From contig WJJJ01000026.1 in NCBI GenBank assembly GCA_014729775.1, positions 16,948 through 80,947 of the forward strand: a stretch of 64,000 nt of DNA. The letters are read 5' to 3'. Shown here piece after piece: positions 20,080 to 50,024 of the stretch. Source of the stretch: Candidatus Omnitrophota bacterium. Lineage in GTDB: Bacteria; Omnitrophota; Gorgyraeia; Duberdicusellales; 4484-171. Below the pieces are notes generated by a model. It saw nothing but the letters and a program-made list of their open reading frames with translations. It ran no database searches and had not been told where the DNA came from. How positions within the stretch are numbered: the stretch's first letter is position 1; each line of letters opens with the position of its first letter. Made by a program: the position numbers and the translations under genes.

Positions 20080-20088
20080 GGCAGGTAT

Positions 20089-21830: not shown

Positions 21831-23072
21831 TCACATTCCGCCGCCGCCGAGCTGGGATATGCGGAACATCGGCAGAAACAGGGATACCACCAGACCGCCG
21901 ATCAGCAGTCCCATGACCATGATCATGATCGGTTCGAACGCCGCGATCAGCCGTTCCACGCGGGTCGTCAGTTCTTTCCGATAATGGATGGATATCTTCT
22001 CAAACACCTGGGGCATCGTCCCGGTCTCCTCGCCGATCTTGGCCATTTCGGAGATCAGCAAAGGAAAAATATTCAGATTACGGAATTCATCGGAAAGGGA
22101 CGATCCCTCGCGCACCTTCTCCTTGACGTGAAGAATACTTTTTTCCAGACGGATGTTGCCGATCCCGTGGGCGGCGACTTCCAGGGTATATACCAGAGGC
22201 AGGCCGCTGTCGAGCAGAATGTAGACAGTGGAAGTCAAACGCTCCAGGCAGGCGTAAAAATGAAACGGCCCCAGCAGAGGGATTTTCAGCCGGATCTTAT
22301 CCCAGAGGGGACGGGTCTCCTGCGAGCGCATAAAATAGACCAGCCCGGCGACCGCCGCGATAAACCCGGCAAGCAGAAGAAAAAAATAGGTATTCACGAA
22401 TTTGCCGATCCCGAACACGATTTGCGTGGCCAGGGGCAGATCGACTCCGAAGTTATCGAATAATTCGATGAACTTCGGCAGGATCACCCGGAAAAACACG
22501 AAGACCACGACCACCGCCACGATCATCAACAGCGACGGGTATATCATCGCGCTTTTTATCTTGCGCTCGAATTCGATCCGCATTTCAAGATAATCCGCCA
22601 GTTTTTCGAGCACAAAGGGCAGGTTTCCCGAAGCCTCGCCTACTTCGACTATCCCGCGCCACAACGAAGAGAATACCTTCGGATACTTCCCGATTGCTTC
22701 GCCCAGCGACAGCCCTTCCTTGATCCGTTTGGCGCATTCACGGAGAATTTTTTCCAGTTTCGCGCTTTCGGTCTGAAAGGACAGGATCTCCAGACTCCGC
22801 AGCAGGGTCACCCCGCTGGAGAGCGTAGTGGCAAGATTACGGGCAAAAAAGGTCAGGTCGTATAGTTTCAGTGAATTGCGTTTCCCGCGGCGGCGGCGTA
22901 AAAAACCGGCACCTCCGCCCGCGCCCTTTTTCTCCTTCACTTCTTTGATCGAGATGATGAACAGTCCCCGCGCTCTGAGTTTGCCGATCAGTTCCTGGCG
23001 CGTATTCGCTTCTTCTATATCCCGTATCTTTCGGGCGTCCTGTGTTTTCGCCGAATAAATAAACTGCGGCAT
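21831..23072 (-). CDS. type II secretion / type IV pilus inner-membrane platform protein (GspF/PilC family)
   Basis: 413 aa, two GspF repeats, three TM segments. Confidence 0.85.
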   Translation of the reverse strand: MPQFIYSAKTQDARKIRDIEEANTRQELIGKLRARGLFIISIKEVKEKKGAGGGAGFLRRRRGKRNSLKLYDLTFFARNLATTLSSGVTLLRSLEILSFQTESAKLEKILRECAKRIKEGLSLGEAIGKYPKVFSSLWRGIVEVGEASGNLPFVLEKLADYLEMRIEFERKIKSAMIYPSLLMIVAVVVVFVFFRVILPKFIELFDNFGVDLPLATQIVFGIGKFVNTYFFLLLAGFIAAVAGLVYFMRSQETRPLWDKIRLKIPLLGPFHFYACLERLTSTVYILLDSGLPLVYTLEVAAHGIGNIRLEKSILHVKEKVREGSSLSDEFRNLNIFPLLISEMAKIGEETGTMPQVFEKISIHYRKELTTRVERLIAAFEPIMIMVMGLLIGGLVVSLFLPMFRISQLGGGGM

Positions 23073-24796: not shown

Positions 24797-24799
24797 ACC

Positions 24800-24819
24800 T
24801 TCTTTCCGTTGAGAAAGAA
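24800..24819 (-). promoter_or_regulatory. perfect 7-bp inverted repeat (TTCTTTC-N6-GAAAGAA) overlapping the Shine-Dalgarno-like sequence of the GspE/PilB gene
   Basis: mRNA reads uucuuuc-ucaacg-gaaagaa-ggu-AUG; the 3' arm contains the only purine-rich SD-like element. Confidence 0.3.
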
Positions 24820-24844
24820 TGTGCCGCGCGCCTGCGATCGCTAC

Positions 24845-26386
24845 TCACCGGGCGTATCGGTCAAGCGTCTGCTCAATGAGCACGCGTTTTTGCGGATTAT
24901 ACTGTTCGCGATGCGGCATCATCGTTTTCTGCGCTAACTGCCTGGTTTTTTCTTCAAGCACGTGCGGCGTCAGGAACACGAGAAGTTCACGCTCCTGCAC
25001 GTCCTGGTTTTTCCACCGGAAAAAACGTCCCAAAAAGGGCACATCACCCAAAATCGGCACTTTAGTATTGTTTTTCGTGGACTCGGTCTTAATTAGTCCG
25101 CCGATCAGCAGAGTCTCGCCGTTCTCAAGACGGGCGATCGCGGTCGCCGACCGTTCCTCGGGATCCTTAATGCTTCCCGCAATAAACGCCTCCGCGGTCT
25201 CGGTCCCCAGCGTAAATCCGCTGTCTTTCGCTTCCCGAACCACCGCTTCCACAAACAGGGTGATCTCGTCGTTCTCGTGATTCACCTGCGGCGTGACCCG
25301 GAGCCGGGTCCCGGTCTGCGCACGTTCGGTGGTAAAGGTCGTTCTGTCGGTATCTCCCGACTCCTCGCGTGTCACTCCGATCGCCTCATCGGTCGTGATC
25401 TGAATTTCCGCGGTCTGATTGGCCAGGGTAAGAATCCGCGGCCGGGCCAGAGATTTGGTATCCGACAAACTGCGCAGAAAATTCAGCACCAGATCAGCCC
25501 CCACCACGGTCAGGACCGTGGGAGTGAACGAGCCCGCGGGGTTTCCGCTGAATTCCCAGTTATCCAGGATAGCTCCTTCCTGCACGTCAAATGAGCCGTA
25601 GTTCGGCGTCGCCGAATACTCGCCGAACGGGAACCGGGTAAATCTCGTTCCCGATACTCCCAGCGAGACCAGGCTGTCCGGCCAGTTGACTCCCATTTTA
25701 TCGATGTTGCGCTTGGACACGTCCAGCATTTCCACCTCGATCATCACCCGCTTCGGTGATCTGTCCAGCCGGTAAATCACCTCGTCGATCATGGGAAACT
25801 GCGCGGGCACATCCACGACGATCAGAGAATTGGTGATCGGATCCTCGCTCACTCTTCCGAATTCGCTGAGCACGGTCTCCACCGCTTTTTTCAGCCCGAT
25901 GAGTTCTTCCTGATCGCCTTCTTCACCCTCTTCTCCTTCTTCGCCTTCTTCCTCCCCGGTACCCATCACGGAATCGATTTCGGTTTTCATCCGGGTGGAA
26001 TCCACGCGCAGATATTTGAGCTGATACACCTTGGTTTTCAGCTCGATGGTCGGCTTGCCCATCTCCTTGACCACGAACACATTGGCCTCCGGATAAAAAT
26101 CGTAGGTAAGATTGTTCGCTTTAAAAATGATATCCAGCGCTTCCTTTAACGGCACGTCCTCCAGATAGAGCACCAGCTTTCGGTCCTGCACCGCTTCGGT
26201 GGAAACGAAATTCAAACCGGTCTGCTGGGAAAGCATCTTGAGCACCCCCACCAGACGCGCGCCTTCCAGATCAAGAGAAACCCGTTTCTTGACGCCGGCG
26301 ATCAGGTAATCACCGTACATGGAATCCTGAGCCCCGGCACTCAGGCCGACGGTAAGCAACAGCAATAAAACGAGCAGTCTTTTCAT
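24845..26386 (-). CDS. secretin (GspD/PilQ family outer-membrane channel)
   Basis: Signal peptide, N-domains, C-terminal secretin motif VPILGDVPFLGRFFR; contains a GEEGEEGEEGEE insertion. Confidence 0.85.
   Translation of the reverse strand: MKRLLVLLLLLTVGLSAGAQDSMYGDYLIAGVKKRVSLDLEGARLVGVLKMLSQQTGLNFVSTEAVQDRKLVLYLEDVPLKEALDIIFKANNLTYDFYPEANVFVVKEMGKPTIELKTKVYQLKYLRVDSTRMKTEIDSVMGTGEEEGEEGEEGEEGDQEELIGLKKAVETVLSEFGRVSEDPITNSLIVVDVPAQFPMIDEVIYRLDRSPKRVMIEVEMLDVSKRNIDKMGVNWPDSLVSLGVSGTRFTRFPFGEYSATPNYGSFDVQEGAILDNWEFSGNPAGSFTPTVLTVVGADLVLNFLRSLSDTKSLARPRILTLANQTAEIQITTDEAIGVTREESGDTDRTTFTTERAQTGTRLRVTPQVNHENDEITLFVEAVVREAKDSGFTLGTETAEAFIAGSIKDPEERSATAIARLENGETLLIGGLIKTESTKNNTKVPILGDVPFLGRFFRWKNQDVQERELLVFLTPHVLEEKTRQLAQKTMMPHREQYNPQKRVLIEQTLDRYAR
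25913..25960 (-). repeat. in-frame tandem 9-bp repeats (GAAGARGGN x4) encoding GEEGEEGEEGEE in the secretin gene
   Basis: Plus strand gccttcttcaccctcttctccttcttcgccttcttcc; translates on the minus strand to EEGEEGEEGEEGD. Confidence 0.7.
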
Positions 26387-26417
26387 TATTCCTCCTTCAA
26401 ATTGGGAATACGATTCG

Positions 26418-26822
26418 TTATTTGGTCACCCCGCGCTTAAATAACTTTCCCCGGTACATAAAAAACACGTTATTTTCTTCGATCTTGAACACCGTCGCCT
26501 CGGCGTCATTATAATACACCGTTTCGCCGACCGCGTATACATCGTCGTTGATCAGGGCCCGCGGCGTATCAGTACCCCATAAAATCCCCTGCACCGGGAT
26601 AGACGGCAGTACGATCGTTTCCGGCTCGGGTTCACCCTGCGGCCCTCCCGGCTCCTCGGGCAGTAATGATTTAAACGGATCGCGTTCGACCGCCGGAATA
26701 CTCAGGGGGACATCGGACACCTGCGCCAGCCCCGCGCGTTCCCCCCGCCACACGCCCGTAAAGGCCAAGGCCGCGGTCAGCGATAGGATCACTCCGGCTT
26801 TATGACACCACAATCTCATCAT
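26418..26822 (-). CDS. PilP/GspC-HR-like periplasmic protein (secretin-interacting)
   Basis: Signal/TM segment, Pro/Glu-rich linker, C-terminal beta-domain resembling PilP / GspC HR (GILWGTDTPRALINDDVYAVGETV). Confidence 0.4.
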   Translation of the reverse strand: MMRLWCHKAGVILSLTAALAFTGVWRGERAGLAQVSDVPLSIPAVERDPFKSLLPEEPGGPQGEPEPETIVLPSIPVQGILWGTDTPRALINDDVYAVGETVYYNDAEATVFKIEENNVFFMYRGKLFKRGVTK

Positions 26823-27313
26823 TCCCCCTGCAGGACATAATACCCGACCAGATCGGCGCGTACCCGCTTGCCGCCGTTCCGGGCCTCACGCACCGTCATG
26901 GTCTTCACCTGGATATTCTTGTGCTCCACCGTATTTACGAACTCCAGAATATCGGTGTACGTTTCGGAAGTGAATTCAAGATAAATTTCCGACACCCCGT
27001 ACCCGTCCTCTTCCCGCTGTTTGGGACGCAGCGCCTCCATATCGACCCCGCTCTCATACGCCGCCTGCTCCACGAAGCGTTTATACTCAATGGGATCGGA
27101 AAAGGCGAACGCTTCGCGCAGAGCCCCGAATTCTTTGTTCACACGTCTCCAGGACGCGATCATCTCCTGTCCCTCTTTCACCTCTTCGACCTGGCGGTTG
27201 ACCGCCTCAAGATCTCCTGCGTATTTCTTGTAGACGCCGTGTACGACAAACGCGGTCACTACCGCGAGCGTCACCACGATAAACACATTTTTATATTCCG
27301 ACAGACGGTTCAT
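26819..27313 (-). CDS. PilO/GspM-like bitopic inner-membrane assembly protein
   Basis: Single N-terminal TM, coiled coil, periplasmic domain; position between the PilM-N fusion and the PilP-like gene. Confidence 0.5.
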   Translation of the reverse strand: MNRLSEYKNVFIVVTLAVVTAFVVHGVYKKYAGDLEAVNRQVEEVKEGQEMIASWRRVNKEFGALREAFAFSDPIEYKRFVEQAAYESGVDMEALRPKQREEDGYGVSEIYLEFTSETYTDILEFVNTVEHKNIQVKTMTVREARNGGKRVRADLVGYYVLQGE

Positions 27314-28797
27314 TTCTCCTCCATCCGAATTTCGAACGAAGTCACTTCATATTCATTTTGCGCGTTCCGTGTCGATGAAACCATCTCCACCGATCCGAAC
27401 AGCCCGAATCGAGAGTTGTGCTCCCGGAGTTCCCGTACGAATTCATCGATACTGACCCGCTCCTTCAGGCTGTCGCCGAGGAACGAAAATCCCGATACAC
27501 TTCCTTGATATCCGTTCTCCCGTTTGGTCAACCGTATTTCATTGAGCCATATGCCGTCGGGCAGTACGTCCGGCAGATTATTGAAAAAGGAACTGGTCCG
27601 TTTGAATTTATCCTGAAGACGCCGAAGGACCGTCACTTCGTTGCGGCGCGACTGCAGACGCTGTGCCCGGTCTTCCCAGGAGAGCCCGCGGAATTCCTCG
27701 GGCAGATTCAGCGCGGCTTCCATTTTGTTCAGCTTCAGCTTCTGGTCAAAGATCACGTTACTGAAAAGCACCGCCACCAGGACCGACGCAAGGATCCCCA
27801 CGCCCAGCACGATCCCGATCGCCAGGTAATTGATCCCCACCCTGGTAGGTTCCATCGACTGCTGTATTTTTACTTCCTCTTCCTTGGTTTCCTGCAATTC
27901 GGGCGAAAACTTGTAGGGGAAAGTTTCCCGACCGGCGGTCCCCAGCGCTTTTGCCCCCTCGACCTCGTTCACCCGATCGTCGATTTCAGTCGCCAGTACC
28001 GCGGATATGTCCAGCTGGAGATCCTCTTTCAACGCAGCAATGATGTCCTCCCGCGGCGTATCGGTCACTACCACCAGTTTATTGATGGAATAGGCCCGGA
28101 ATTCCCGCAGAAAATACTGAAAAGAGAGTCTCACCGACTCGGTGTATTTGCCCGTGTCGAACTCACCCTCCTGTTCCACCGCCAAATAGCGGTTAAATAC
28201 CGGCAGTTCGTTATAGAAGAAGGTCAGATACGACTCGTGCCGGGTAAGATCGAGCACGGCAAAATTTTTCAAGCCTGAATATTTTTTCACTGACTTGAGC
28301 GTCCGTACCAGCGCGATACAAGCCGGTTCGATGATGGTCGGGGTAAGGTCAAGGTGAGAAAAGATCGTCTGGACTTTCCGGTAATTCTCCTGCTTTATCC
28401 CGATAAAACAGACCATCAGCTTTTTTTCCTTCGCCAGACGGGCGTAGCTGTAATCCCAGATCAGTTCGGTCACCTTAAAGGGAATATGTTTTTCGATCTC
28501 GTACATGAGCGAGGCGCTGAGTTCGTTCTTGTTCATCATCGGCATTTCGAACGAACGGAAGATGAAATCCCGGTCGCCGAGGGCGACGCTCACGTCTTTT
28601 TCGTCACTGTGAATCTGACGGAGGGTTTTATTGATCAGGGCTTCCCATTTGACGTCTTCGCTCAATGTTTCGACCTGTGCGTCCTCCTCAAGAGAAGAGA
28701 GATCGAACTTTGCCGCGGCCAGGGCGCGCTTGGCTTCGGCCAGAACCGCCCCGATCGAATTCACGCCCAAATAAATACCGAGATTTTTTCGTGCCAT
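27310..28797 (-). CDS. PilM-PilN fusion protein (GspL-like architecture)
   Basis: N-terminal actin-like PilM domain (LGIYLGVNSIGAVLAE...), central TM (INYLAIGIVLGVGILASVLVAVLF), periplasmic PilN-like coiled coil. Confidence 0.6.
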   Translation of the reverse strand: MARKNLGIYLGVNSIGAVLAEAKRALAAAKFDLSSLEEDAQVETLSEDVKWEALINKTLRQIHSDEKDVSVALGDRDFIFRSFEMPMMNKNELSASLMYEIEKHIPFKVTELIWDYSYARLAKEKKLMVCFIGIKQENYRKVQTIFSHLDLTPTIIEPACIALVRTLKSVKKYSGLKNFAVLDLTRHESYLTFFYNELPVFNRYLAVEQEGEFDTGKYTESVRLSFQYFLREFRAYSINKLVVVTDTPREDIIAALKEDLQLDISAVLATEIDDRVNEVEGAKALGTAGRETFPYKFSPELQETKEEEVKIQQSMEPTRVGINYLAIGIVLGVGILASVLVAVLFSNVIFDQKLKLNKMEAALNLPEEFRGLSWEDRAQRLQSRRNEVTVLRRLQDKFKRTSSFFNNLPDVLPDGIWLNEIRLTKRENGYQGSVSGFSFLGDSLKERVSIDEFVRELREHNSRFGLFGSVEMVSSTRNAQNEYEVTSFEIRMEEK

Positions 28798-38931: not shown

Positions 38932-40845
38932 TCACAGACGGCGGGTAATGACCTCCTCCGCGTAGGCGTCGATGCGGTCGCCTTCCTGTATTTGATCATA
39001 GCCGGTACCGATACCGCACTCGTATCCTTCCGCGACTTCCTTGACGTCTTCCTTAAACCGTTTCAGTGAACGGATCTTGCCTTCGTGAACGACTTCATTC
39101 TCCCGGCTCACCTGGCAAATGGCTCCGCGGGCGATTTTTCCTTTTTCGATCATGCACCCGGCTATTTTCCCGGATCTACTCAGGGAAAACACCGTTTTCA
39201 CCACCGCGCGTCCGGTAAAAATCTTTTTCACGTGCGGCGAGAGCAGTCCTTCAAGCGCCGCTTTCACGTCATCAATAAGTTCATAAATGATCTGGTACAC
39301 CCTGATCTCAATCCCTTTGCTTTTGGCCAGGTCACGCACGGACGCGTCGGCGGTCACTTTAAAGCCCACGATCACCGCGTCACTCACCTCGGCAAGCAGC
39401 ACGTCCGAAGAATTCACCGCGCCTATGCCTTTGTGAACCAGCTGTAGTTCGACCTCTTTGGAAGAGATATTGCGCAGGGACCCTTCCACCGCTTCCAGGG
39501 TGCCGCCCACATCCGCTTTCAGGATCACTTTCAGCTGTTTTACTTCTCCTTCCTGGACCTTCTTGTATAAATCCTCCAGCTTCATGTGAGAAGACGGAGC
39601 GAGTTTTTTCCGCTTGGCTTCTTCCCGCCGCTTTTCAACGATCTCCCGGCCCTGGTGTTCATCGGAAACCACATAGAGCTGATCACCCGGATTAGGAACT
39701 CCGTTGAGTCCTAATATCTCGACAGGCGCGGCGGGGCCGGCCTCTTCCGTTCCTTCCCCTTTATCGTCCAGCATCGCTTTCACCCGTCCCAGCTCGGTTC
39801 CGCACACGCACCAGTCACCGACGCGCAGCACCCCTTCCTGCACCAGCACCGTGGCCAGAGGACCCTTTCCCGGCGACAGCCGGGCTTCCACCACGACCCC
39901 TTTTGCCCGGCGGCCGTAATCCGCCTTCAACTCCATAATTTCGGCCTGCAGCAGAATAAGTTCAAGCAGTTCATCAATGCCTTCCCCCGTTTTGGCGGAC
40001 ACCTTGACCGTAGGCGTCTGCCCGCCCCAGTCTTCAGGAGCGAGTTCGTGCTTGGAAAGCTGCTGTTTCACCATATCCACGTCAGCGGTCGGAAGGTCGC
40101 ACTTGTTTACCGCGACAATGATCGGCACGTCAGCGGCACGGGCGTGATCAAGCGCCTCCACCGTCTGAGGTTTTACCCCGTCATCAGCGGCGACGACCAG
40201 TATGACGATGTCGGTAATATTCGCTCCCCGCGCGCGCATTTCGGTAAAAGTTTCATGGCCGGGCGTGTCAACGAAAGAAATATTTCCTTTGGGAAGCCGG
40301 ATCTGGTAGGCGCCGATATGCTGGGTAATCCCTCCGGTTTCCTTCTCCGTGATCGTACTTTTCCGGATATAATCAAGAATACTCGTTTTTCCGTGGTCGA
40401 TATGCCCCATGAGAGTAATGACCGGCGGACGGGACTTCAGCTCCTGCGTTTCTTCAACCTGCAGGACCTGCTCCTCGGTCGTCGGTTTTTGGCGCAGATT
40501 TACTTTATACTTGTAGGCAAGCGCCGATGCGGTCTGTTCATCAAGCGCTTGATTGATATTGAACATTTTCCCTTGACGCAGCAAATCCCCCATAATTTCA
40601 GACGGCTTCTTATTCAATTTGACCGCAAGCTCCTTGACCGTAATCGGGAAATCAACCTCGATAACGTTCTGTTCGATTTCTCTCTGTTTCAGGTTTTCCA
40701 CTTCGTGCTTGATGATTTCCGCCGTGTCTTTATCGACGCTGGACATATGGCTTTTGACCGGAAAATTCAGCTTCTTGAGTTTCTCGATCAAGGCCTTACT
40801 GTCAACGCCCATTTCTTTTGCGAGCTCATGTATTCTCATACTCAA
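38932..40845 (-). CDS. infB: translation initiation factor IF-2
   Basis: G1-G4 GTPase motifs ([19 protein letters not shown]); 637 aa, short N-terminal region. Confidence 0.9.
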
Positions 40846-42143
40846 TTCTCTCCTTTTTCTTCGTCCGCCTTATGTTCCGTTTCCGTTGGTTCTTCGTTCG
40901 GTTCCCGCGGCGGTTCTTGCTCGCCGGGTTCATCCTCGGAGGTATCCCGCCGCAGGGCTTCCTGTTCGGCTTTTTTCGCTTTTGCTTCCTCCTCGGCCCG
41001 GACCTTTTGTTCCCGCGCGGTTTTCTCCGCCTCTTCGATGATCTGCGCGGCCTTCTTCTCTCCTATTCCTTTCAGGTCCGACAACGCATCCAGATTCGCC
41101 TTCGCCAGCGTGCCCACGTTCCCGTAGCCGGCATCCACCAGCGTTTCGGCGATTTTCTTCCCCACGCTTTTCAGCTGTTTAATCACTTTTATTTCCTCTT
41201 CGATCACTTCCTGGGACCGGACGTCAATCTCCCAGCCCACGAGACGGGACGCCAGACGCACGTTCTGCCCTTTTTTGCCGATCGCCAGCGAAAGCTGATC
41301 GTTGTTCACCAGTACCTTCGTGCGCTTATTGTCGCGGTCCAGTTCGATCCGGGAAACCACCGCCGGCGCGAGCGCCGCTTTAATGAACGCTTTTATATCG
41401 TCGTGCCAGCGCACAATGTCGATTTTTTCCCCGCGCAGCTCCTCAATGATATTTTTGACGCGCGAACCTCTGATCCCCACGCACGCGCCCACGCAGTCCA
41501 CTTTTTCATCCTTGGAATAGACCGCGATCTTGGTCCGCTCGCCGGCTTCGCGCGCGATCGATTTCACCTCCACTATTCCTTCGCCAATTTCCGGAACTTC
41601 CAGATCGAATAATTTCTTGACCAGGCCCTCGTGTCTTCGCGAAAGAATAATCTGGGTTCCTTTATCTTTTTTTACCTCATACACGTAGGCCTTGACCCTT
41701 TCCCCCATCCGGAACCGGTCCAGAGGAGAAAGGAACGAATGTGGAATAACCCCTTCGGTTTTCCCCATGAGATCGAGAATGACCGCCTTTTTATCAAAAC
41801 GGTAGACGGCCCCTCCGATGATATCACCTTCTTTTTCCTTGAATTCGCTATACAGATTCTCTTTTTCCGCCTCGCGTATTTTCTGGATGATCACCTGTCG
41901 GGCGGTCTGCGCGGCGATCCGGCCGAACTCTTTTGACACGATTTCCTCTTCGCCGATAAACACGTGGATATCGCCTTTGTCCTTGTCTATTTCCACGCGC
42001 ACGTCCTCGCTCGCGGAAGTAATTTTCGAGATCTTTTTCGCCGCGACTTCCAGCGCGTGTTTGACGGCTTCAAGCAGGACATTTTTATCCAGCCCTTTTT
42101 CCCGTTCCAACTGTTCGACTACGCTCAAGAATTCTTTATTCAC
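40842..42143 (-). CDS. nusA: transcription termination/antitermination factor NusA
   Basis: S1 and KH domains, C-terminal acidic/lysine-rich tail; precedes infB. Confidence 0.9.
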   Translation of the reverse strand: MNKEFLSVVEQLEREKGLDKNVLLEAVKHALEVAAKKISKITSASEDVRVEIDKDKGDIHVFIGEEEIVSKEFGRIAAQTARQVIIQKIREAEKENLYSEFKEKEGDIIGGAVYRFDKKAVILDLMGKTEGVIPHSFLSPLDRFRMGERVKAYVYEVKKDKGTQIILSRRHEGLVKKLFDLEVPEIGEGIVEVKSIAREAGERTKIAVYSKDEKVDCVGACVGIRGSRVKNIIEELRGEKIDIVRWHDDIKAFIKAALAPAVVSRIELDRDNKRTKVLVNNDQLSLAIGKKGQNVRLASRLVGWEIDVRSQEVIEEEIKVIKQLKSVGKKIAETLVDAGYGNVGTLAKANLDALSDLKGIGEKKAAQIIEEAEKTAREQKVRAEEEAKAKKAEQEALRRDTSEDEPGEQEPPREPNEEPTETEHKADEEKGEN

Positions 42144-42173: not shown

Positions 42174-42641
42174 TTATCTGAATTTTTGTTTTCCGGTCTT
42201 TATTTGTTCATACTCGATGTGAAGACAGGTCTCGCCCTTGACGCGAATTTCCAGCGCGTCCTCGCCTGCATGGATCACTTGTCCTTCCCAATACGTCTTG
42301 CCCGATACCGGTTCATTCATCCACACCCCGACCTCGCGCCCGGCAACCCGCCGGAAATCCCGGCACTCGCGCAACGGGTGGTCCAGCCCGGGCGAATTGA
42401 CCTCTACCGTATACTGATCTCCCAGCGCGGCGGTTTCTTCCAGATACGCCGTAAGAAGACGGTTCACCTCCGCGCACTCGTCAATCGTGATCCCGCCTCC
42501 GGAACGGTCGATTAACAGCCGCAGAGAAACTTTTCCTTTCGTCGGCACGAGCGAGTATCCGAAGAGCTCGAATCCGCACTTCGCCGCGACTTCGCCGGCT
42601 TTTCGCTCAATTTGCGTTTGCACCGCAACGGGTATACTCAT
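42174..42641 (-). CDS. rimP: ribosome maturation factor RimP
   Basis: Start at internal MSIPVAVQTQIE, directly after the proS stop; conserved rimP-nusA-infB arrangement. Confidence 0.75.
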   Translation of the reverse strand: MSIPVAVQTQIERKAGEVAAKCGFELFGYSLVPTKGKVSLRLLIDRSGGGITIDECAEVNRLLTAYLEETAALGDQYTVEVNSPGLDHPLRECRDFRRVAGREVGVWMNEPVSGKTYWEGQVIHAGEDALEIRVKGETCLHIEYEQIKTGKQKFR

Positions 42642-42642
42642 C

Positions 42643-43857
42643 TCACACGTGCTCCGCTGCCGCGTCCGGGGACATCGCACTGCGTTCCCCGTCCGCCCGC
42701 GATTCCACTTCAATCTCTTTCCGGTCGGCGAACGTCCGGCCCATCACGAGGATCCGGGGGATCCCCAGCAGCTGCGCGTCACGGAATTTCACGCCCGCGC
42801 TTTCATTCCTGTCATCAATCAAAACGCTTCCCCCCCCGGTCTCAATACGTTCCGCCAGACGGCGGGCCTGGGGGATGAACTCCTGATTCAATACGACGAT
42901 CACCGCCCGATACGGACTCACCCGCGCCGGCCATATAATTCCCTTTTCATCGTGATTCGTTTCAATAATAGCCGAGAGCAGGCGGCTCACTCCGATCCCG
43001 TAACATCCCATTACCAAGGGGTTCCGTTTCCCGTGCTGATCGAGAAACGTCGCCTGCAGCGGTACGGAATACTTTGTGCCTAATTTAAACACGTGCCCGA
43101 TCTCGATCATCCGCGACTCACTCAGCGCCTGGCCGCAGTGTTCGCACTGTCCCGCTTCCCGGGCGTAAAGACCGCACCCGGCGCAGGCATACAGCATATC
43201 TTCGCCGATTTCCGCCGGGACCATGAATTCATGGGACACGTTGCCGCCCATAGCTCCCGGATCGGCTTCGCTCACCACGTATTCCAATCCGCATTCGGTA
43301 AAAATTTTCTGATAGGCGTCCAGCATCTTCTCGTAACTGGCGTTCAACCCGCTTTCGTCCGCGTCAAAACTGTAGGCGTCCTTCATCATGAATTCGCAGC
43401 CGCGGACCAGGCCGAACCGGGGCCTCATCTCGTCCCGGTATTTCGTCTGTATCTGATACAGCGTGACCGGAAGCTGTTTATAGGAAGAAATATATTTGGA
43501 CGCGATTTCGGTGATCAATTCCTCGTGCGTGGGCCCCAGACACAGTTTTCGGCCCTTGCGGTCCTGCACATGGAGCATCACTTCCTCCAGGTCTTTATCC
43601 CGCCCGGTCTTCTGCCACAGTTCCAGCGGCTGCAGCGCGGGCATAAATAATTCCTGCGCACCCGTTTGCTCCATCCTCCCGCGCACGATTTCTTCGATGT
43701 TCCGAAGAACTTTATACCCCAGCGGTAAATAGGTATAAATCCCTGCCGATACCATGTGCAGCAGGCCGGCGCGCAGAGAAAGCGCATGGCTTACGGCCTC
43801 GGCTCCCTTCGGAGTCTCCTTAGTCGTTGGGATGAATGTCTGGGAACGCAATTCCAT
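42643..43857 (-). CDS. proS: proline--tRNA ligase (short bacterial-type form lacking the INS editing domain)
   Basis: Class II motifs; 404 aa; C-terminal anticodon-binding domain. Confidence 0.85.
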   Translation of the reverse strand: MELRSQTFIPTTKETPKGAEAVSHALSLRAGLLHMVSAGIYTYLPLGYKVLRNIEEIVRGRMEQTGAQELFMPALQPLELWQKTGRDKDLEEVMLHVQDRKGRKLCLGPTHEELITEIASKYISSYKQLPVTLYQIQTKYRDEMRPRFGLVRGCEFMMKDAYSFDADESGLNASYEKMLDAYQKIFTECGLEYVVSEADPGAMGGNVSHEFMVPAEIGEDMLYACAGCGLYAREAGQCEHCGQALSESRMIEIGHVFKLGTKYSVPLQATFLDQHGKRNPLVMGCYGIGVSRLLSAIIETNHDEKGIIWPARVSPYRAVIVVLNQEFIPQARRLAERIETGGGSVLIDDRNESAGVKFRDAQLLGIPRILVMGRTFADRKEIEVESRADGERSAMSPDAAAEHV

Positions 43858-43868: not shown

Positions 43869-45119
43869 TTATTTTTGCTCGAATATCTCTTTGGAAAGCT
43901 CCACGCCTTTTTTCCGGAATAAAGGGAAAAATGACGGAGCGTTTTTCGCCGCGAACGCGCCGCGGACCTTTCCTTCTTCATCCACGTCTTCGACGTGATA
44001 CCGAAAAATATCCCTGAGCACGATGTCTTCGCCTTCGATCCGCTCCACCTCGGTCATATAGGTAATTTTTCTTGTCCCGTCGGTAAGCTGGTCATGCTGG
44101 ACGATCAAATCAACCCCGGAAGCGATCTGTTTCCGGATCGCCCAGACGGGAAGATACAGCCCCGCGTAGAGAGCCGTCGTTTCCAAACGGGTAAGGGCGT
44201 CGAACGGCGTGGCCGCGTGAATGACCGCCAGACAGCCGCGGTGCCCGCTGTTGAGCGCCTGCAGATAATCCATCGCCTCCGGACCGCGTATCTCACCCAG
44301 AATGATCCGCGTGGGACGCATCCTCAGTGTATTGATAAACAGATCCCGGATGGTCACCTCACCTTTCCCCTCGATATTCGGCGGTCGGGTGAGAATGCGG
44401 ACTACGTGATCCTGCCTCAGGGTCAGTTCCAGGGTGTCTTCGATCACGATGATCCGCTCCAGCGGACTCAGATACGAGGATAATACCTCCAACGTGGTCG
44501 TTTTCCCCGAACCGGTCGCTCCGGAAAACAAAATATTCACCTTTGCCTTAATGCAGGCTACGAGAAAGTCCGCCATCCGCTGATCAATAGTGCCGAGCTC
44601 AACGAGGTCCTCAACCGCGTTAATGCTCCGCAGGAATTTACGGATGGTCACCGTCGTCCCGCCGACCGACAGCGGCGGGATGATGACGTTTACGCGGGAT
44701 CCGTCCTGGAGCGAAAAATCCACATACGGGTACGACTCATCCACCCGTTTTCCGGTCGGAAGCAGCATTTTATCGATGGTATGACGCAAATGCGTTTCAT
44801 CGTCGAACTGCAGATCGGTCGGCACTTTTCTCCCGTCTTTTTCCATGTACACCTGGTACGGCCCGTTGATCATGATCTCGGTCACCTGGGGGTCCTGCAT
44901 CAGCGGTTCCAGCGGTCCAAACCCGATAAATTCGTCGATCAGTTCCCTGATCACCTGTTCCTGCACATCCCGCGCGATCACGCGGTCCTTTTCTTTTTCC
45001 CAGTAGTTGAATATTTTCGCCACCCGTTCCCTGACGATCTCCCCGGTAAGTTTCTGGTTCATTCCGAGGGAAAAACTCAACTCTTTCCGCAGTTCTTTTT
45101 TAATTTCGCGAACTTCCAT
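43869..45119 (-). CDS. CpaF/TadA-family type II/IV secretion ATPase (orphan)
   Basis: Walker [11 protein letters not shown], Asp box IVIEDTLEL, Walker [10 protein letters not shown], His box VIHAATP; 416 aa. Confidence 0.75.
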
Positions 45120-45120: not shown

Positions 45121-46167
45121 TTACAAAACCCCCATTTTCGATAATATGTCCCGCGCGTGGGCAGTCTCCGGTATCGTCCCGATAATTTTATTTTTGCGGA
45201 AAATCACTCCCCGCCCTTTTCCGAACGCTACCCCCACTTCGGCCTGCGCCGCTTCGCCCGGGCCGTTCACCTCACACCCCATAAGCGCGATCTTTTTCGG
45301 GAAAGATACTCCCTGGGATTGAAGCCGGTTCACCTCGTTGCGGAACCGATCCACGATACGCACAAGATTCACTTGACACCGGGAACAGGTGGGGCACGAA
45401 ATAATTTCCGGGTAAAAATGTCTCCGGCCCAGACTTTGGAGAATGGATTTTGCAACCCGTATTTCCCAGAAAGACGGTCCGGTAAGCGATACCCGGATCA
45501 CTTCGCCGATCCCCTCGGCCAACAGCATTCCGATTCCCAGAGACGACTTCACTACCCCTTCCAGAAAAGGACCGCTCGCGGTCACTCCCAAATGAAGCGG
45601 ATACTGAAACGTATCCCGGAATAACCGGTTCGCCTTGACTGTCGCCGGAACCGTGGAGGCCTTTAAAGACACCATAATATCAAAAAAATGCTCTTTTTCC
45701 AATAGCTTTATGTACCGGGAGACCGCGGCCACCATCTGCCGCGCCAGGCGTCCTTCTCCGCCCGTTCCCTGGCGAAACCCTCCGGAATTCACCCCGACCC
45801 GGATCGAAACGCCGTTCTGTTTCGCGGCACGGGCAACCTCACGCACCTGCGCGGCGCCGGTAATATTAAGCGGATTCAGCCTGATGCCGTCGAATCCCTG
45901 CTCAATCGCCTGCAGCGCCAGCCTATGCTGAAAATGAATGTCGGCAACGAGCGGGACCCGCACCCTTTTTTTGATATACCCGGCGATCGCACTGTCTTTT
46001 TTGTGCTTTACCGCGATCCGGATCGCTTCAGCCCCTTCGCGTTCGAGACGCTTCGCTTCCCGGCGCAAGGCCGGCCAGTCATCCATCCGCCCTTTGAGCA
46101 TCCCTTTGATCCGGACCGGATTCTTTCCGCCGACCTTCAACGGTCCGATCGATACGGTCCTGCTCAT
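45121..46167 (-). CDS. ispG: 4-hydroxy-3-methylbut-2-en-1-yl diphosphate synthase IspG (GcpE)
   Basis: TIM-barrel N-domain and 4Fe-4S domain with ISCPTCSRC...GC cysteines; 348 aa. Confidence 0.9.
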   Translation of the reverse strand: MSRTVSIGPLKVGGKNPVRIKGMLKGRMDDWPALRREAKRLEREGAEAIRIAVKHKKDSAIAGYIKKRVRVPLVADIHFQHRLALQAIEQGFDGIRLNPLNITGAAQVREVARAAKQNGVSIRVGVNSGGFRQGTGGEGRLARQMVAAVSRYIKLLEKEHFFDIMVSLKASTVPATVKANRLFRDTFQYPLHLGVTASGPFLEGVVKSSLGIGMLLAEGIGEVIRVSLTGPSFWEIRVAKSILQSLGRRHFYPEIISCPTCSRCQVNLVRIVDRFRNEVNRLQSQGVSFPKKIALMGCEVNGPGEAAQAEVGVAFGKGRGVIFRKNKIIGTIPETAHARDILSKMGVL

Positions 46168-47303
46168 TGTCCTGCCTCCGGGATTTCGTTCCGGAGAGAC
46201 GGGAGGACCCGTTGTTTGAGCGTCATTATTTTATCCCAGTATTTGGGACCGTACTTCACGATATCGTTATAGGACACCGTGAGCACCAGCAGCAGGATCA
46301 GCCCGATGCCGATTTTCATCAATATGCCTTCAGCCCGTTCGCTCAGCGGTTTTCGCCTGATCCGTTCCAAACCGAATACCGCCAGATGCCCTCCGTCAAG
46401 AACCGGAACCGGAAGCAGGTTAATGATCGCGAGGCTGATATTGAGCGCCGCGGCGAAATTCAACACCTGGACGACCCCCATCTTGGTAAATTGAGCCGTG
46501 TAATACACAATTGCCAACGGTCCGCCGGCTCCTTCCCGGAACGATATCGAACCGGTCAGGATGTACCAGAAACTCCTCGCAACCCGGGCCGTCAGTTTTA
46601 TCCACAGTTCTCCTCCCTTAAGCAGAGCGCCGGGGAATCCATACCGCACGGTTTCAGTGTTGACCTGCGGGGCAATTCCCATTATCGAAACCTCTTCCAG
46701 TTTCCGTCCGTACTCATCCCGGAGGACTTTCGTTTTCAACGGCACCGTGGAAGTAAAGGTATTTTCGCCGCGCTGATAGCTCACCGTGACTCTCTGCTGA
46801 GCCGCGTGGATGAGCTCAGCCATATGCTCCCAGTCATCCACTTCCGTCTCGTCTACCGCGAGGATACGATCCCCTTCCCGCAGTCCCGCTTCCGCGGCGG
46901 GATACCCTTCTTCCAGAGACCCGATGACCGGTTCCGATGACACGTCCGCTTTAGGATATCCGATAAACGCGATCAGGCAGAACAGGACTCCCGCCAGCAG
47001 GTAATTGCCTATCGGCCCGGCCGCCACTATGCGCGATTTGATCCCCGGAGATTTGGACAGGAATTCTTCGGGAGTACCCCGCGCCTCATCCTTGTTGTCG
47101 CCGGCCAGCTTCACGTACCCTCCCAGCGGAACCGCGCATACCAAAAACAGCGTATCTCCTTTTTTGAATTGAAAAAGCGGAGGGCCAAAACCGATCGAAA
47201 ATTTCTCCACTTTCACGCCCGAAAACCGTGCGACAATAAAATGGCTGTATTCATGCACCATCACCAACACGCTGAATATAAGAATCGCGACCAATAACGT
47301 CAT
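46164..47303 (-). CDS. rseP: RIP zinc metalloprotease RseP (site-2 protease)
   Basis: HEYSHF HExxH motif, PDZ domain, LDGGH motif. Confidence 0.85.
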   Translation of the reverse strand: MTLLVAILIFSVLVMVHEYSHFIVARFSGVKVEKFSIGFGPPLFQFKKGDTLFLVCAVPLGGYVKLAGDNKDEARGTPEEFLSKSPGIKSRIVAAGPIGNYLLAGVLFCLIAFIGYPKADVSSEPVIGSLEEGYPAAEAGLREGDRILAVDETEVDDWEHMAELIHAAQQRVTVSYQRGENTFTSTVPLKTKVLRDEYGRKLEEVSIMGIAPQVNTETVRYGFPGALLKGGELWIKLTARVARSFWYILTGSISFREGAGGPLAIVYYTAQFTKMGVVQVLNFAAALNISLAIINLLPVPVLDGGHLAVFGLERIRRKPLSERAEGILMKIGIGLILLLVLTVSYNDIVKYGPKYWDKIMTLKQRVLPSLRNEIPEAGQ

Positions 47304-48439
47304 CCGGCTATCCTCTCTTTCATTTTAACCCGCGCCCATCGATCCCAGAAGAAAACATCGTCGATCTTCTTCACGGGACGGGAAGGATACACGCCGCGCA
47401 TCCACTTCATAAGCGCGCTGATCCGGTGAAACTTTATTTTCTCCCGCAGGAACGCGTCCACGAGCACTTCGTCGCAGGCGTTGAGTACCACCGTCCCGTT
47501 GTCGGCCCGCCGGGCCGTTTCGGTCACCAGATCGAACAAGGGAAACCTCCGGGCGGGAAGCGGCTCAAACGTCAGTTTCCGCGCGCAAAAATCCGCTTCC
47601 GGAAGATCCCGTCTCCGTTCCGGATAAAAAAAAGCCGCGGCGATGGGCAATCTCATGTCCGGCGGGTACATACAGGCAAATATCATCCGGTCCGGAGATC
47701 TCACCAGTGCGTGCGCGATCGACTCCCGGTGCAGCAGCACTTCGATCCGGTCATAGGGCATATCGAAAAAAAAGTGCGTTTCAATCACTTCAAACGCTTT
47801 ATTTACCAGCGTCGCGCTGTCGACGGTAATTCTTTTCCCCATTTTCCACGTCGGATGACGCAGCACGTCCCGGGGAGAAACATTTTTTAATTGGGATCTG
47901 CGGTAATCCAGCAGTGCTCCTCCGGAAGCGGTCAGATACACCTTATCGATCGGCGTATCGCGCATCTGCCACAGTTGGAAGAACGCGTTGATCTCACTGT
48001 CCACCGGCAGGATCCGCACGCCGTACTTGCGCGCCCTGCGGAATAAAATGTGTCCCGCGCAGACGACGGATTCTTTATTGGCCAGCGCGACCGTCTTCGC
48101 ATAGGGAATATGCTCCCATAAAGGTCTCAGCGCGTCGATACCGGAAATCGCCATCAGCGTAAGGTCGGCGTTCCTCCGGCTGAATTCGCGCAGGCCCGCC
48201 CGCCCGAAATAATACCGGATACGCCGGCCTCGCAGTTTCTTTCTCAATTCTTTTTCCCGTTGGGAATCCACCAGACACACCGCGCGGGGACAAAACTCCC
48301 GCGCCTGCGCGGCTAAGGTATCGGAGTCCCCGTAAGCGCATAACCCGTCAACCCGAAAACGCTTCGGATGCGCCCGGACGATATCCAGCGCGCTCGTCCC
48401 CACGGAACCGGTAGAACCGAATACAGCTACTCTTTTCAT
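47300..48439 (-). CDS. dxr: 1-deoxy-D-xylulose 5-phosphate reductoisomerase
   Basis: GSTGSVG NADPH motif, LANKES, 379 aa. Confidence 0.9.
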   Translation of the reverse strand: MKRVAVFGSTGSVGTSALDIVRAHPKRFRVDGLCAYGDSDTLAAQAREFCPRAVCLVDSQREKELRKKLRGRRIRYYFGRAGLREFSRRNADLTLMAISGIDALRPLWEHIPYAKTVALANKESVVCAGHILFRRARKYGVRILPVDSEINAFFQLWQMRDTPIDKVYLTASGGALLDYRRSQLKNVSPRDVLRHPTWKMGKRITVDSATLVNKAFEVIETHFFFDMPYDRIEVLLHRESIAHALVRSPDRMIFACMYPPDMRLPIAAAFFYPERRRDLPEADFCARKLTFEPLPARRFPLFDLVTETARRADNGTVVLNACDEVLVDAFLREKIKFHRISALMKWMRGVYPSRPVKKIDDVFFWDRWARVKMKERIAG

Positions 48440-48444: not shown

Positions 48445-49236
48445 TTACTGGATCATCGTGACATACAGGTAGAACGTCGGCGCGGTAAAAATGATACTGT
48501 CGACCACGTCCAGCGCCCCGCCCATTCCCGGCACGATCTTACCCGAGTCCTTCACCTGACAGTCGCGCTTCAGCAAAGATTCGAACAGATCGCCCAGCTG
48601 GGAAATTACCGCGAGAATGATGATAAGAAAAAACTTCTCCCAAAACCCGATCGAGGTAATGAGCAGAGAAAAGAGAGTCCCCGCCGCGATACTGGTAAAG
48701 AACCCGCCGATGGAACCTTCCAGAGATTTCTGAGGACTCACGCGTTTGAGAAGCGGGGCTTTTCCGTATTTCTTTCCCCAGAGATACGCGCCCACGTCCG
48801 ATGATTTCGTCACCAGAATCAGAAACCCGCAGAGCAGTGCGCCTTCGGGCAAAAGCCTGATCCGCACCAGGAAGCTCAGACACCAGGAAATATAAAGAAT
48901 CGCGAACACCGTAGCCGAAATGGAAAGAATCGGCTGATGCGTTTCTCTTTTGGTGAGTTCCAGCAGGAAAAACAGAAACAGGGCCACCACGACCGAAATA
49001 AACTGTATCCCTTCCAGGACCGGGAAGCGGAAATGAATCGTTACCGGGATCAATATACCGGCGCACAGCGCCACGGCTTTAAATAACCGCACCCCTTTCT
49101 TTTCCACCATGTAGAAAAATTCATAGAGACTCACCGCGATCGCGACGGCGACCAAAAACGTCCACAACGGCGCATACAGGATCGCCGCGATCACCGACAC
49201 ACCGAGTACAATCGAAGTAATCACTCTTTTTCTCAT
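48445..49236 (-). CDS. cdsA: phosphatidate cytidylyltransferase
   Basis: Polytopic membrane protein with C-terminal CTP-transferase signature (SxxKRxxxxKDxGxxxPGHGGxxD-like). Confidence 0.85.
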   Translation of the reverse strand: MRKRVITSIVLGVSVIAAILYAPLWTFLVAVAIAVSLYEFFYMVEKKGVRLFKAVALCAGILIPVTIHFRFPVLEGIQFISVVVALFLFFLLELTKRETHQPILSISATVFAILYISWCLSFLVRIRLLPEGALLCGFLILVTKSSDVGAYLWGKKYGKAPLLKRVSPQKSLEGSIGGFFTSIAAGTLFSLLITSIGFWEKFFLIIILAVISQLGDLFESLLKRDCQVKDSGKIVPGMGGALDVVDSIIFTAPTFYLYVTMIQ

Positions 49237-49949
49237 ACTTCCCCGTACCGTCTTTCCCTGCGCCGGTATGATTCAACCGCGCGCGCTAACTGCTCCCTGT
49301 CAAAATCCGGCCATAGAATGTCGGAAAAGTAAAATTCGGTGTAGGCGCAGTACCACAGTAAAAAATTGCTGATCCGCTGTTCGCCGGAAGTCCGGATTAA
49401 AAGATCGGGATCCCGCACGTCGCCCATGGCGAGCCGTGCACGGAACGCCTCCGCGTCGATATCTTCCTCGCGCAGGGTGCGGGCCGACACCTCGCCCGCG
49501 ACCCTTCGGGCCGCCTGTACGATATCCCACCTTCCGCCGTAATCAAGGGCAACCTGGAACAAAAAGCTGCAATTTCCCGCGGTCAGCTGTTCCACTTCTT
49601 CGATTTTTCTGACCGTGGATTTTTTAAGCCGGTCGCGCCGGCCGAGAATCCTCAACCGGATATCATTCTTCTGGAGATCTTCCTTGTACCCTTCGAGGAA
49701 CCTGTCCAAATAGGAAAAAAGCACCTTGAGCTCCTCCTGAGGCCGGTTCCAGTTTTCGGTGGAAAAAGCGAAAATGGTGAGTACCCGGACGCCGAGCTCC
49801 TTGGCGCTGCGCACGATCTCCTTGACCCGCTTAACCCCCTCCCTATGTCCGGCCGTCCGCGGCAGGCCCCGGTTCAGCGCCCAACGCCCGTTCCCGTCGA
49901 GTATGATCGCGATATGGGCCGGTATTTCTTTTTTTTCTTTCTCTTTCAT
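49233..49949 (-). CDS. uppS: ditrans,polycis-undecaprenyl-diphosphate synthase (isoprenyl transferase)
   Basis: HIAIILDGNGRWA, FSTENWNRP, LLIRTSGEQRISNFLLW motifs. Confidence 0.9.
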   Translation of the reverse strand: MKEKEKKEIPAHIAIILDGNGRWALNRGLPRTAGHREGVKRVKEIVRSAKELGVRVLTIFAFSTENWNRPQEELKVLFSYLDRFLEGYKEDLQKNDIRLRILGRRDRLKKSTVRKIEEVEQLTAGNCSFLFQVALDYGGRWDIVQAARRVAGEVSARTLREEDIDAEAFRARLAMGDVRDPDLLIRTSGEQRISNFLLWYCAYTEFYFSDILWPDFDREQLARAVESYRRRERRYGEV

Positions 49950-49950: not shown

Positions 49951-49984
49951 TTTTTCGAAGAAAAAAAGGGGGCGTCGAGCCCCC
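49951..49984 (-). terminator. Rho-independent terminator between the coiled-coil/OmpA operon and uppS
   Basis: On the minus strand: GGGGGC-tcgac-GCCCCC hairpin (49968-49984) followed by UUUUUUUCUUCGAAAAA (49951-49967). Confidence 0.6.
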
Positions 49985-50024
49985 TTAGTCGTGATCATCC
50001 CTGCAGCATTTACGCTGGTTGCGT

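Follow-up and report, generated by a model that had tools for sequence, protein, structure and literature searches.

A CpaF/TadA-family ATPase fixed upstream of proS in a housekeeping operon of the Omnitrophota, with a conserved catalytic core and a clade-specific set of replaced residues

The subject of this analysis is a gene for a CpaF/TadA-family ATPase, here called cpaF1, which lies between ispG and proS in a 64-kb stretch of contig WJJJ01000026.1 of a Candidatus Omnitrophota bacterium (the window: the whole stretch of 64,000 nucleotides that was analyzed). The gene is part of a same-strand run in the order uppS-cdsA-dxr-rseP-ispG-cpaF-proS-rimP-nusA-infB. Both of its junctions are tight, with a 1-nt spacer after the ispG stop (TAA-a-ATG) and an 11-nt spacer before the proS start (TAA-gaacggacagt-ATG), in accord with the distances given in an earlier note that had been made by a model from the DNA sequence. 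A consensus scan of the minus strand found no terminator-like hairpin at either of the cpaF1 junctions. It did pick up a strong hairpin directly upstream of uppS, which likely marks the 5' boundary of the transcription unit. The genes of this run, as open reading frames (ORFs) with their supporting evidence, are as follows.

49966..49986, minus: terminator-like hairpin of 8 pairs (6 G-C) followed by a T-run (consensus scan, pattern match only)
49233-49949, minus: uppS (ORF; orthologues annotated by Pfam in loci L001 and L002)
48445-49236, minus: cdsA (ORF; orthologues annotated by Pfam in L001 and L002)
47300-48439, minus: dxr (ORF; orthologues annotated by Pfam in L001 and L002)
46164-47303, minus: rseP (Pfam Peptidase_M50/PDZ)
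45121..46167, minus: ispG (GcpE; Pfam GcpE, 1.2e-108; TIGR00612 above its cut-off)
43869..45119, minus: cpaF1, a 416-aa CpaF/TadA-family ATPase (ORF with ATG start, Pfam, PDB match, structural model)
42643..43857, minus: proS, a short 404-aa prolyl-tRNA synthetase (ProRS; Pfam tRNA-synt_2b and HGTP_anticodon; NCBIfam proS models)
42174-42713, minus: rimP, as a mechanically called ORF with a TTG start (RimP Pfam; synteny)
40842-42143, minus: nusA (ORF; synteny)
38932-40845, minus: infB, translation initiation factor IF2 (ORF; synteny)

The cpaF1 product matches the Pfam T2SSE model with E=1.8e-50 (172 bits against a cut-off of 24.9). A phmmer search of the PDB recovers Caulobacter CpaF (8rkd, 8rjf and 9e24) as its best relative of solved structure, with E=4.5e-98 and residues 20-407 aligned to residues 26-411 of 8rkd. 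A database entry that is 100% identical to it bears the name 'CpaF family protein [Candidatus Omnitrophica bacterium]'. A separate exact-protein look-up gave no record, and close homologues were taken in its place. Among the NCBIfam models the order of closeness is TadA-type, then FlaI and then VirB11/TrbB, with no model reaching its cut-off. The best match is TIGR03819, a TadA family associated with conjugal transfer (287.7 bits against 373.15), and the scores fall further for the VirB11/TrbB models TIGR02788 (182.9 against 249.95) and TIGR02782 (166.7 against 304.55) and the PilT model TIGR01420 (pilT_fam; 47.9 against 319.1). An AlphaFold2 (AF2) model built with 60 homologues (mean confidence score, pLDDT, of 85.5) comprises a three-helix bundle, an N-terminal domain (NTD) and a RecA-like C-terminal domain (CTD). 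Its top four Foldseek matches in the PDB are all CpaF chains, with TM-scores of 0.69-0.75 (8rjf at 0.75), followed by FlaI and archaeal GspE2. The full-length ORF and the T2SSE, PDB and AF2 matches agree with the initial identification of a complete CpaF-type ATPase, and the cpaF1 product is a CpaF family member by its sequence and predicted fold.

The 120 best database relatives of CpaF1, at 60-80% identity, come from Omnitrophota wherever their source is named. Scanning a single genome for each GTDB species yielded 80 CpaF loci, to which three (L085, L087 and L090) were added later. In this survey, all loci whose CpaF is at least about 50% identical and that are labelled either Omnitrophota or 'Planctomycetales' have the same synteny, and none of the loci from other phyla in the scan shows the operon synteny. 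The gene sits immediately upstream of proS in 22/22 other non-redundant Omnitrophota loci and directly after ispG in 21 of them. In 18 of the 21 loci that allow the measurement, the window among them, the distance from its stop to the proS start falls between -2 and 12 nt, and two complete Omnitrophota chromosomes (CP070807.1 and CP070684.1) have an identical ten-gene order around the orthologue. In the deep-branching locus L090 (46% identity; positions 8863-12541), the order is rseP-cpaF-proS without ispG. Therefore, it is with proS and the operon backbone that cpaF1 has its conserved link, rather than with ispG. Where lineages are named, the coverage extends to at least two orders of the class Velamenicoccia, namely Duberdicusellales (family 4484-171) and Gygaellales, together with divergent metagenome-assembled genomes (MAGs). 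The 'Planctomycetales' loci (L010, L013, L015, L016, L022 and L033) belong to MAGs named 'uncultured Planctomycetales/Planctomycetia' that carry the full Omnitrophota-type operon with cpaF1. This label comes from an automated pipeline, and these MAGs are probably mislabelled Omnitrophota.

CpaF1 is also among the best conserved products of the operon. Its mean identity to the window protein is 58.6%, as against 58.4% for NusA, 54.7% for ProRS, 53.8% for IF2, 49.0% for IspG and 42.2% for Dxr, and wherever a locus offers seven or more genes for comparison, cpaF1 is one of the four best conserved of the operon. Within the cpaF1 clade, the mean pairwise identity is 65% over 137 sequences. These identities indicate that cpaF1 is under strong purifying selection. 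The earlier note had treated the gene as an oddity of a single genome; the survey of related genomes that it called for, with the placement upstream of proS kept throughout, instead identifies cpaF1, at the level of sequence and gene order, as a lineage-wide core gene. The possibility of a recent insertion or horizontal transfer was considered and rejected because the base composition is flat and the synteny is conserved in every Omnitrophota locus. A functional link of cpaF1 with ProRS, IspG or RseP was likewise set aside: only adjacency supports it and the operon backbone is ancestral.

For comparison with conventional Tad loci, hidden Markov models (HMMs) for TadB/TadC, TadZ and CpaB were built from one canonical locus and iterated over all fetched loci; the TadZ model caught CpaF itself through fusions or over-extended ORFs, and its weak matches were disregarded. 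Among the 62 CpaF loci from other phyla (Chloroflexota, Verrucomicrobiota, Planctomycetota, Elusimicrobiota, Lentisphaerota and others), most have tadZ upstream, often along with cpaB, and tadB and tadC downstream. By the same models, no TadB, TadC or TadZ occurs within ~10 kb of cpaF1 in any syntenic Omnitrophota locus. A candidate Omnitrophota Tad locus, L050 (Ca. Subteraquimicrobium), proved by its taxonomy to belong to the Actinomycetota and was kept as a canonical comparison only. Some of the loci from other phyla have unusually long CpaF ORFs. In those of Lentisphaerota/WOR-3 (L039, L052, L056 and L066), they are ~545-605 aa long with an FHA-like region that is apparently N-terminal. In Elusimicrobiota (L058, L067, L071 and L083), they reach ~715-745 aa and match the TadZ model more strongly than plain CpaF, which is consistent with a TadZ-like fusion or with over-extended ORFs.

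To define what sets the operon-embedded proteins apart, 137 cpaF1 sequences were aligned with 56 canonical CpaFs, the Caulobacter residue number being the window residue number plus 81. In a neighbor-joining tree, the kind of placement suggested at the outset, the cpaF1 proteins form one clade apart from the 56 canonical CpaFs. The sites in the window gene that bear on this distinction, with residue counts given in the text below, are the following.

44739..44741, minus: Asp127, equivalent of the Loop-8 residue D208, an extension-face platform contact (Asp in 137/137)
44712..44714, minus: Ser136, in place of the cis NTD arginine finger R217
44499..44525, minus: Walker A/P-loop SGATGSGKT, residues 199-207, with K206 intact
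44358..44381, minus: central/pore loop PNIEGKGE, residues 247-254 (Caulobacter E331-G334), likewise a platform contact of the extension face
44202..44204, minus: Phe306, at the position of the retraction-face residue R387
44088..44090, minus: Gln344, at the position of Caulobacter R425
43905..43919, minus: basic patch F-R/K-K-K-G, residues 401-405, in the C-terminal region (column counts)

The residues kept in 134-137 of the 137 proteins are, in Caulobacter numbering, K287, E312, E357, R359, H382, R223, R347, D208 and E331-G334. K206 of Walker A, E231 of the Asp box, E276 of Walker B and H293 and H301 of the His box are intact in the window protein, each being invariant (137/137), and the same holds for the equivalents of the cis finger R223 and the trans finger R347. 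So far as these residues can tell, the catalytic core of CpaF1 is intact. The pore loop is nearly as constant (E250 in 134/137, G251 in 135/137 and G253 in 137/137). In Caulobacter, D208 and the central loop were modelled as touching the platform proteins CpaG/CpaH (TadB/TadC), and mutation of either D208 (D208K) or the central loop abolished function (Hohl et al., PMC11300603).

Against this background of retention stand several replacements, and while the earlier note was right about intact Walker A, Walker B, Asp and His boxes, the protein is not fully canonical. The most conspicuous is that of R217, which is one of two NTD arginine fingers engaging the phosphates in the catalytically active state (PMC11300603, PMC12019362). 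It is Arg in 56/56 canonical CpaFs and in 0/137 cpaF1 proteins, where the position is taken by Ser (98), Ala (34), Cys (4) or Met (1). At the R387 position on the retraction face, Arg is found in 2/137 cpaF1 proteins vs 54/56 canonical ones, and the G-R-P-K motif of that face is not kept in the 137-sequence alignment. R425, present in 56/56 canonical CpaFs, is Gln in 137/137. Within Walker A itself, Ala201 replaces G282 (Ala in 136/137 vs Gly in 56/56). In the C-terminal region, where canonical CpaFs have I/F/L-E-A-A-G, the clade has the conserved basic F-R/K-K-K-G. In all, about 17 replacements are fixed in the clade at positions where the 56 canonical CpaFs show little or no variation; besides R217S/A and R425Q, these comprise G282A, V342F, T372S and T380V, as well as I199M, A216F, N292E, A311L, E324L, M366Y, M370L, N384S, M399Y and A416G. 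The list is completed by a charge reversal beside the first His-box histidine (D375 to Arg or Lys in 115/137). Among the 150 best of 5,007 cluster representatives at 50% identity (E < 1e-30), only seven carry the full signature or most of it and the others are canonical; the top of this list is occupied mostly by long fusion proteins, which makes it useful only for counting carriers of the signature. Many of these representatives are ~700 aa long with the CpaF part at residues 300-700, and are possibly over-extended ORFs. Taken together, the recurring placement and the remodelled active site mark cpaF1 not as a stray gene but as a distinct branch within the family of Tad motors.

In 4 of the 23 syntenic loci (the 22 plus the window), though not in the window operon, a second paralogue, cpaF2, is inserted between proS and rimP:

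L010:12365-13594, cpaF2
L014:12464-13729, cpaF2
L085:10001-11230, cpaF2
L087:10001-11248, cpaF2

CpaF2 proteins constitute a large Omnitrophota clade of their own with a different pattern of losses: R217 is kept, the trans finger R347 is replaced by His (118/118) and the Loop-8 D208 by Ser or Thr. Because the finger losses of the two paralogues are complementary, a mixed ring is conceivable. We infer only that an alternating F1/F2 heterohexamer could exist, in which the F2 sites would receive their own R217 along with R347 from F1 and the F1 sites would have neither, giving three competent and three degenerate sites. Many cpaF2 proteins carry a precomputed match to Pfam PF27713 (UCP018868), on which we place no interpretation. 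At a further locus (L084:10001-12619), on a 1.19-Mb contig, dnaX-recR is immediately preceded by two tandem genes for T2SSE-family ATPases, and the vicinity holds no pilus genes. One of the two ATPases is 60% identical to cpaF2, and the other, of 449 aa and 35% identical to the window CpaF, is missing the first His of the His box.

The closest outside relatives of cpaF1 form what we call the P0310 clade, which includes proteins labelled Myxococcota. Its members have the signature in part, namely the lack of Arg at 217 together with A282, F342, S372 and V380, and they keep R425. No TadB or TadC was found at the loci of this type, which are:

L088:2360-6431
L092:5315-15206
L093:4835-15826

Their CpaF gene is embedded in a conserved module of the form TPR / unknown 750-880-aa protein / VWA / CpaF / Ser-Thr kinase / unknown / FHA protein, which adjoins lpxL-lpxK-rpoD-DUF374-msbA. 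As this clade too is orphan and without Arg217, the loss of R217 and the separation from tadB/tadC may predate the Omnitrophota clade.

Pfam annotation of essentially every other ORF shows the window to be a one-strand housekeeping array accompanied by a V/A-type ATPase operon (7120-15573) and a cluster of the type IVa pilus (T4aP)/type II secretion system (T2SS)-like kind (18974-28797). The latter encodes four pilins, PilC, PilB with an MshEN domain, a secretin and a fused PilM-PilN. It represents the sole filament genes in the window, its near end being ~15 kb from cpaF1; the earlier note had correctly described such a distant cluster furnished with its own GspE-type ATPase. No TadB, TadC, TadZ, Flp, RcpA, CpaB or second CpaF was found by Pfam across essentially all ORFs of the window, nor were genes of a type IV secretion system or pilT, which bears out the observation that cpaF1 has no Tad partner or other secretion component nearby. 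The protein of most relevance in the cluster is

21831..23072, minus: PilC, with two T2SSF domains (Pfam T2SSF, 1.7e-58)

the window's only platform protein of the GspF fold, which we infer to be a candidate docking partner of CpaF1.

Several further features of the window deserve mention. The PilB/GspE ATPase (23087-24796, minus) has its MshEN domain at the N-terminus, and PilM and PilN are apparently fused in one 495-aa ORF (27310-28797, minus). The V/A-type ATPase operon (minus strand) is complete, with subunits D, B, A, E, F, I, C/AC39 and a G-like one, and 3.4 kb separate it from the pilus cluster, whose pilin end is at 18974. Seymour et al. 2023 describe non-respiratory F-type ATPases beside Omnitrophota T4aP clusters, whereas the neighbor here is a V/A-type enzyme. 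The window ProRS matches a 559-aa bacterial ProRS model in two stretches only, hence the INS editing domain is absent, and its orthologues at related loci are likewise 404-419 aa long. Finally, the mechanical rimP ORF shares 71 nt with the end of proS, and its RimP domain begins at residue 40; the true rimP start is therefore probably further downstream than the TTG.

What might this ATPase drive? We tentatively favor, while holding it somewhat short of even likelihood, the interpretation that CpaF1 is a core, constitutively co-expressed, one-way extension-type motor acting on a GspF-fold platform encoded elsewhere, possibly the PilC of the T4aP. Under this proposal, cpaF1 would represent a vertically inherited subfamily of CpaF/TadA ATPases in the core genome of Omnitrophota, which was long ago uncoupled from any Tad cluster and became fixed upstream of proS in an ancient operon; fixed inside the uppS-...-infB operon, it would thus be co-transcribed with the housekeeping genes. 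It is predicted to work as an ATP-hydrolyzing hexamer and to dock on a membrane platform of the GspF fold with its N-terminal (extension) face, since the clade keeps the Loop-8 Asp and the EGKG pore loop as constant as genuine Tad motors do. The loss of one cis arginine finger and of R387 on the C-terminal face leads us to predict an assembly-type, one-way motor with altered kinetics, which would be neither bifunctional nor a retraction motor. This prediction draws on a recent proposal, set out in a preprint by Whitfield et al. 2026 (bioRxiv 10.64898/2026.02.24.707734), that CpaF flips, docks by its C-terminal face and retracts pili. The preprint describes Caulobacter R387A pili as showing no (visible) retraction, and 'single-orientation' orthologues as degenerate at R387, the beta13-beta14 turn and the C-terminal motif. 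By those criteria, CpaF1 looks, from its residues, like an extension-type motor with a remodelled C-terminal face.

As to the client, a T4aP/T2SS-like machine (PilC) or an as yet unrecognized platform would be the most likely, as Tad platforms are reported absent from a closely related family. The genome concerned is that of locus L005, whose cpaF1 is 77% identical to that of the window with the same synteny; its MAG QZM4_2.bins.51 is genome 223 of Seymour et al. 2023 and falls in Velamenicoccia, Duberdicusellales, family 4484-171. In that study, Tad complexes are stated to be absent from family 4484-171 and T4aP genes to be nearly universal in Omnitrophota. In the part of its KEGG orthology (KO) table covered here, genome 231, which is 92.7% complete and also falls in family 4484-171, has K02283 (cpaF) and the pilB, pilC, pilD, pilM and pilT KOs, and is listed without K12510/K12511 (tadB/C), K02282 (tadZ) and K02279/K02280 (cpaB/cpaC). 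Thus, the client of CpaF1 is probably not a Tad pilus.

Several considerations weigh against this interpretation. We found no physical or genetic link between cpaF1 and PilC or another platform, and the T4aP cluster, which has its own PilB, shows no synteny with the operon elsewhere (L002). The absence of Tad systems rests on published TXSScan/KO calls for related MAGs and not on the window genome. The docking loops could have been retained under a structural or catalytic constraint and not for the binding of a platform; the C-terminal region, remodelled and yet conserved in the form of the FKKKG patch, could point to a new partner; and the loss of the arginine finger might signify a regulatory or slow ATPase instead of a motor. 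Moreover, for the Velamenicoccus orthologue the literature searched yielded neither expression nor proteomic evidence.

Of the alternatives, the one that fares best, although we consider it unlikely, is that the hexameric ATPase was recruited to some other essential process and powers no type IV filament at all—for instance, an envelope or lipid-carrier-linked export step, or the remodelling of membranes or nucleoproteins. The presence of the gene at every fetched Omnitrophota locus with NusA-level conservation, its permanent site in a core operon with filament genes absent nearby in the 22 other loci, the ~17 clade-fixed replacements at canonically invariant positions, including an arginine finger, and the clade-specific conserved basic C-terminal patch would all fit such a recruitment. 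So would the nearest outside relatives in the P0310 clade, which are orphans too and lie beside envelope-lipid genes. The uppS, cdsA, dxr, rseP and ispG neighbors might hint at an envelope or lipid-carrier step, and there is a precedent in the superfamily in the archaeal Holliday-junction ATPase PINA, which is among the NCBIfam and PDB matches. However, the uppS...proS...infB gene order is ancestral and widespread, occurring for example in Bacillus subtilis, so that the neighbors need not point to function. Further, no candidate new partner has been identified, and the invariance of the motifs that contact TadB/TadC (D127 in 137/137, EGKG in 134-137/137) is hard to explain without docking. A more elaborate version, which we regard as rather doubtful, would have CpaF1 as a new motor class: an essential housekeeping hexamer with a non-Tad, unrecognized client, sometimes joined by CpaF2 and using its basic C-terminal face as the interface.

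A second alternative is that a Tad/Flp cluster lacking its own ATPase exists elsewhere in the genome and is served by a relocated cpaF1. It has in its favor that the protein is a bona fide CpaF in sequence and fold with intact extension-face loops, that only a 64-kb window of this genome was inspected, and that Seymour et al. report TadB/TadC/RcpA in 74/116 Velamenicoccia species, with an analysis that took in TadB/C, Flp, RcpA and TadZ and left TadA out. Set against this, family 4484-171, L005 included, is described there as Tad-less and yet keeps cpaF1, and genome 231 has the cpaF KO without those for tadB, tadC, tadZ, cpaB or cpaC. Furthermore, the secretion loci beside the giant genes of Omnitrophota reportedly carry their own gspE, gspF and gspD (West-Roberts et al.), and the Tad locus of V. 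archaeovorus is termed 'complete' by Seymour et al. Mere relocation is also not expected to fix ~17 changes at invariant positions. The 22/22 conserved placement, these fixed changes and the reportedly Tad-less family of L005 together make a trivially displaced Tad gene, the outcome that would have deflated the original observation, improbable, and a Tad locus merely lacking its ATPase is unlikely in the window lineage.

The suggestion that the gene might supply a retraction-like or auxiliary ATPase (akin to PilT/PilU) for the nearby T4aP fares worse and now seems very improbable. The T4aP is near-universal in the phylum on the published account cited above, with a cluster 15 kb away in the window, and Caulobacter CpaF is itself able to drive retraction according to the preprint noted earlier. 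Yet the retraction face has lost R387 (Arg in 2/137), the very residue whose R387A mutation is described there as blocking visible retraction, and R425 has become Gln in 137/137, while the extension-face loops are invariant. The score against the NCBIfam PilT model is far below its cut-off (47.9 vs 319), no conserved linkage of cpaF1 with the T4aP cluster is seen, and a pilT KO (K02669) is listed in genome 231 and one other Omnitrophota genome of the same partial table, so that at least one related MAG has a pilT gene.

Finally, the loss of one arginine finger and several otherwise invariant residues might be taken for decay, but with a full-length ORF of conserved start and stop, a complete catalytic core, 65% mean pairwise identity among 137 sequences, at least NusA/IF2-level conservation and substitutions that are fixed rather than scattered, a non-functional remnant has next to no probability; the conservation data effectively refute it, in line with the earlier impression that the gene bears no signs of a pseudogene.

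The Omnitrophota are widespread, uncultivated and ultra-small, and are thought to be predators or parasites, with surface machines central to their lifestyle. The literature searched makes no mention of a core-operon CpaF subfamily, the main surveys treating Tad/T4aP components without the ATPase and scoring Tad systems by TadB/TadC/RcpA. What appears to be new here is a clear CpaF homologue with a distinct conserved context and, by residue comparison, a distinct active-site and surface signature. With its NusA-level conservation, linkage to proS, retained docking face and lost arginine finger and retraction face, cpaF1 can serve as a natural experiment on how bifunctional Tad motors turn one-way and whether their clients can switch. 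It also gives this phylum, for which there is next to no genetics, a concrete candidate for an essential function that can be put to the test. If confirmed, the CpaF1/CpaF2 pair would constitute a heteromeric ring of PilT/VirB11-type ATPases achieved via complementary losses of cis and trans fingers; we know of no earlier example of such a ring.

Among known systems, the closest is Caulobacter crescentus CpaF (8rkd, 8rjf and 9e24), with ~42% identity (Foldseek) over residues 20-407, the same three-helix bundle, NTD and RecA-like CTD, and R223, R347, the Loop-8 Asp and the central pore loop in common. CpaF1 differs from it in lacking the N-terminal disordered extension (416 vs 501 aa), in the loss of R217, R387 and R425, in G282A, V342F, T372S, T380V and about ten more changes, and in lying in a housekeeping operon without tadZ, tadB, tadC, flp or rcpA neighbors. 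The 'single-orientation' CpaFs of Whitfield et al., as far as the available preprint text describes them, likewise keep the extension-face motifs and have lost R387 at the alpha11 N-terminus along with retraction-face elements. Unlike CpaF1, they were modelled with platforms as Tad motor subcomplexes, whereas cpaF1 has no adjacent platform genes and a C-terminus that is remodelled and conserved (FKKKG) rather than simply degenerate.

PilT and PilU belong with CpaF1 to the superfamily of PilT/VirB11-like hexameric ATPases, and motor paralogues of this type are sometimes encoded apart from their pilus cluster. However, the best PilT matches of CpaF1 in the PDB reach only E ~1e-10, over the P-loop region alone, and the N-terminal architecture is different. 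FlaI and the archaeal GspE2 (archaellum and Epd-like systems) are the next-best structural relatives after CpaF (Foldseek E ~1e-28, TMq 0.61-0.73) and share the three-domain layout, but at 24-28% identity (Foldseek) and with a FlaI model score of 186 vs a cut-off of 550; moreover, cpaF1 is bacterial and has no archaellum genes. PINA, an archaeal ATPase with a PilT N-terminal domain that acts on Holliday junctions, sets a precedent for a single-gene, filament-free member of the superfamily. It is very distant from CpaF1 (NCBIfam 27 bits vs a cut-off of 800; PDB 5yww, E=1.6e-5), and the NCBIfam and PDB comparisons give no sign of a DNA-related function for the latter.

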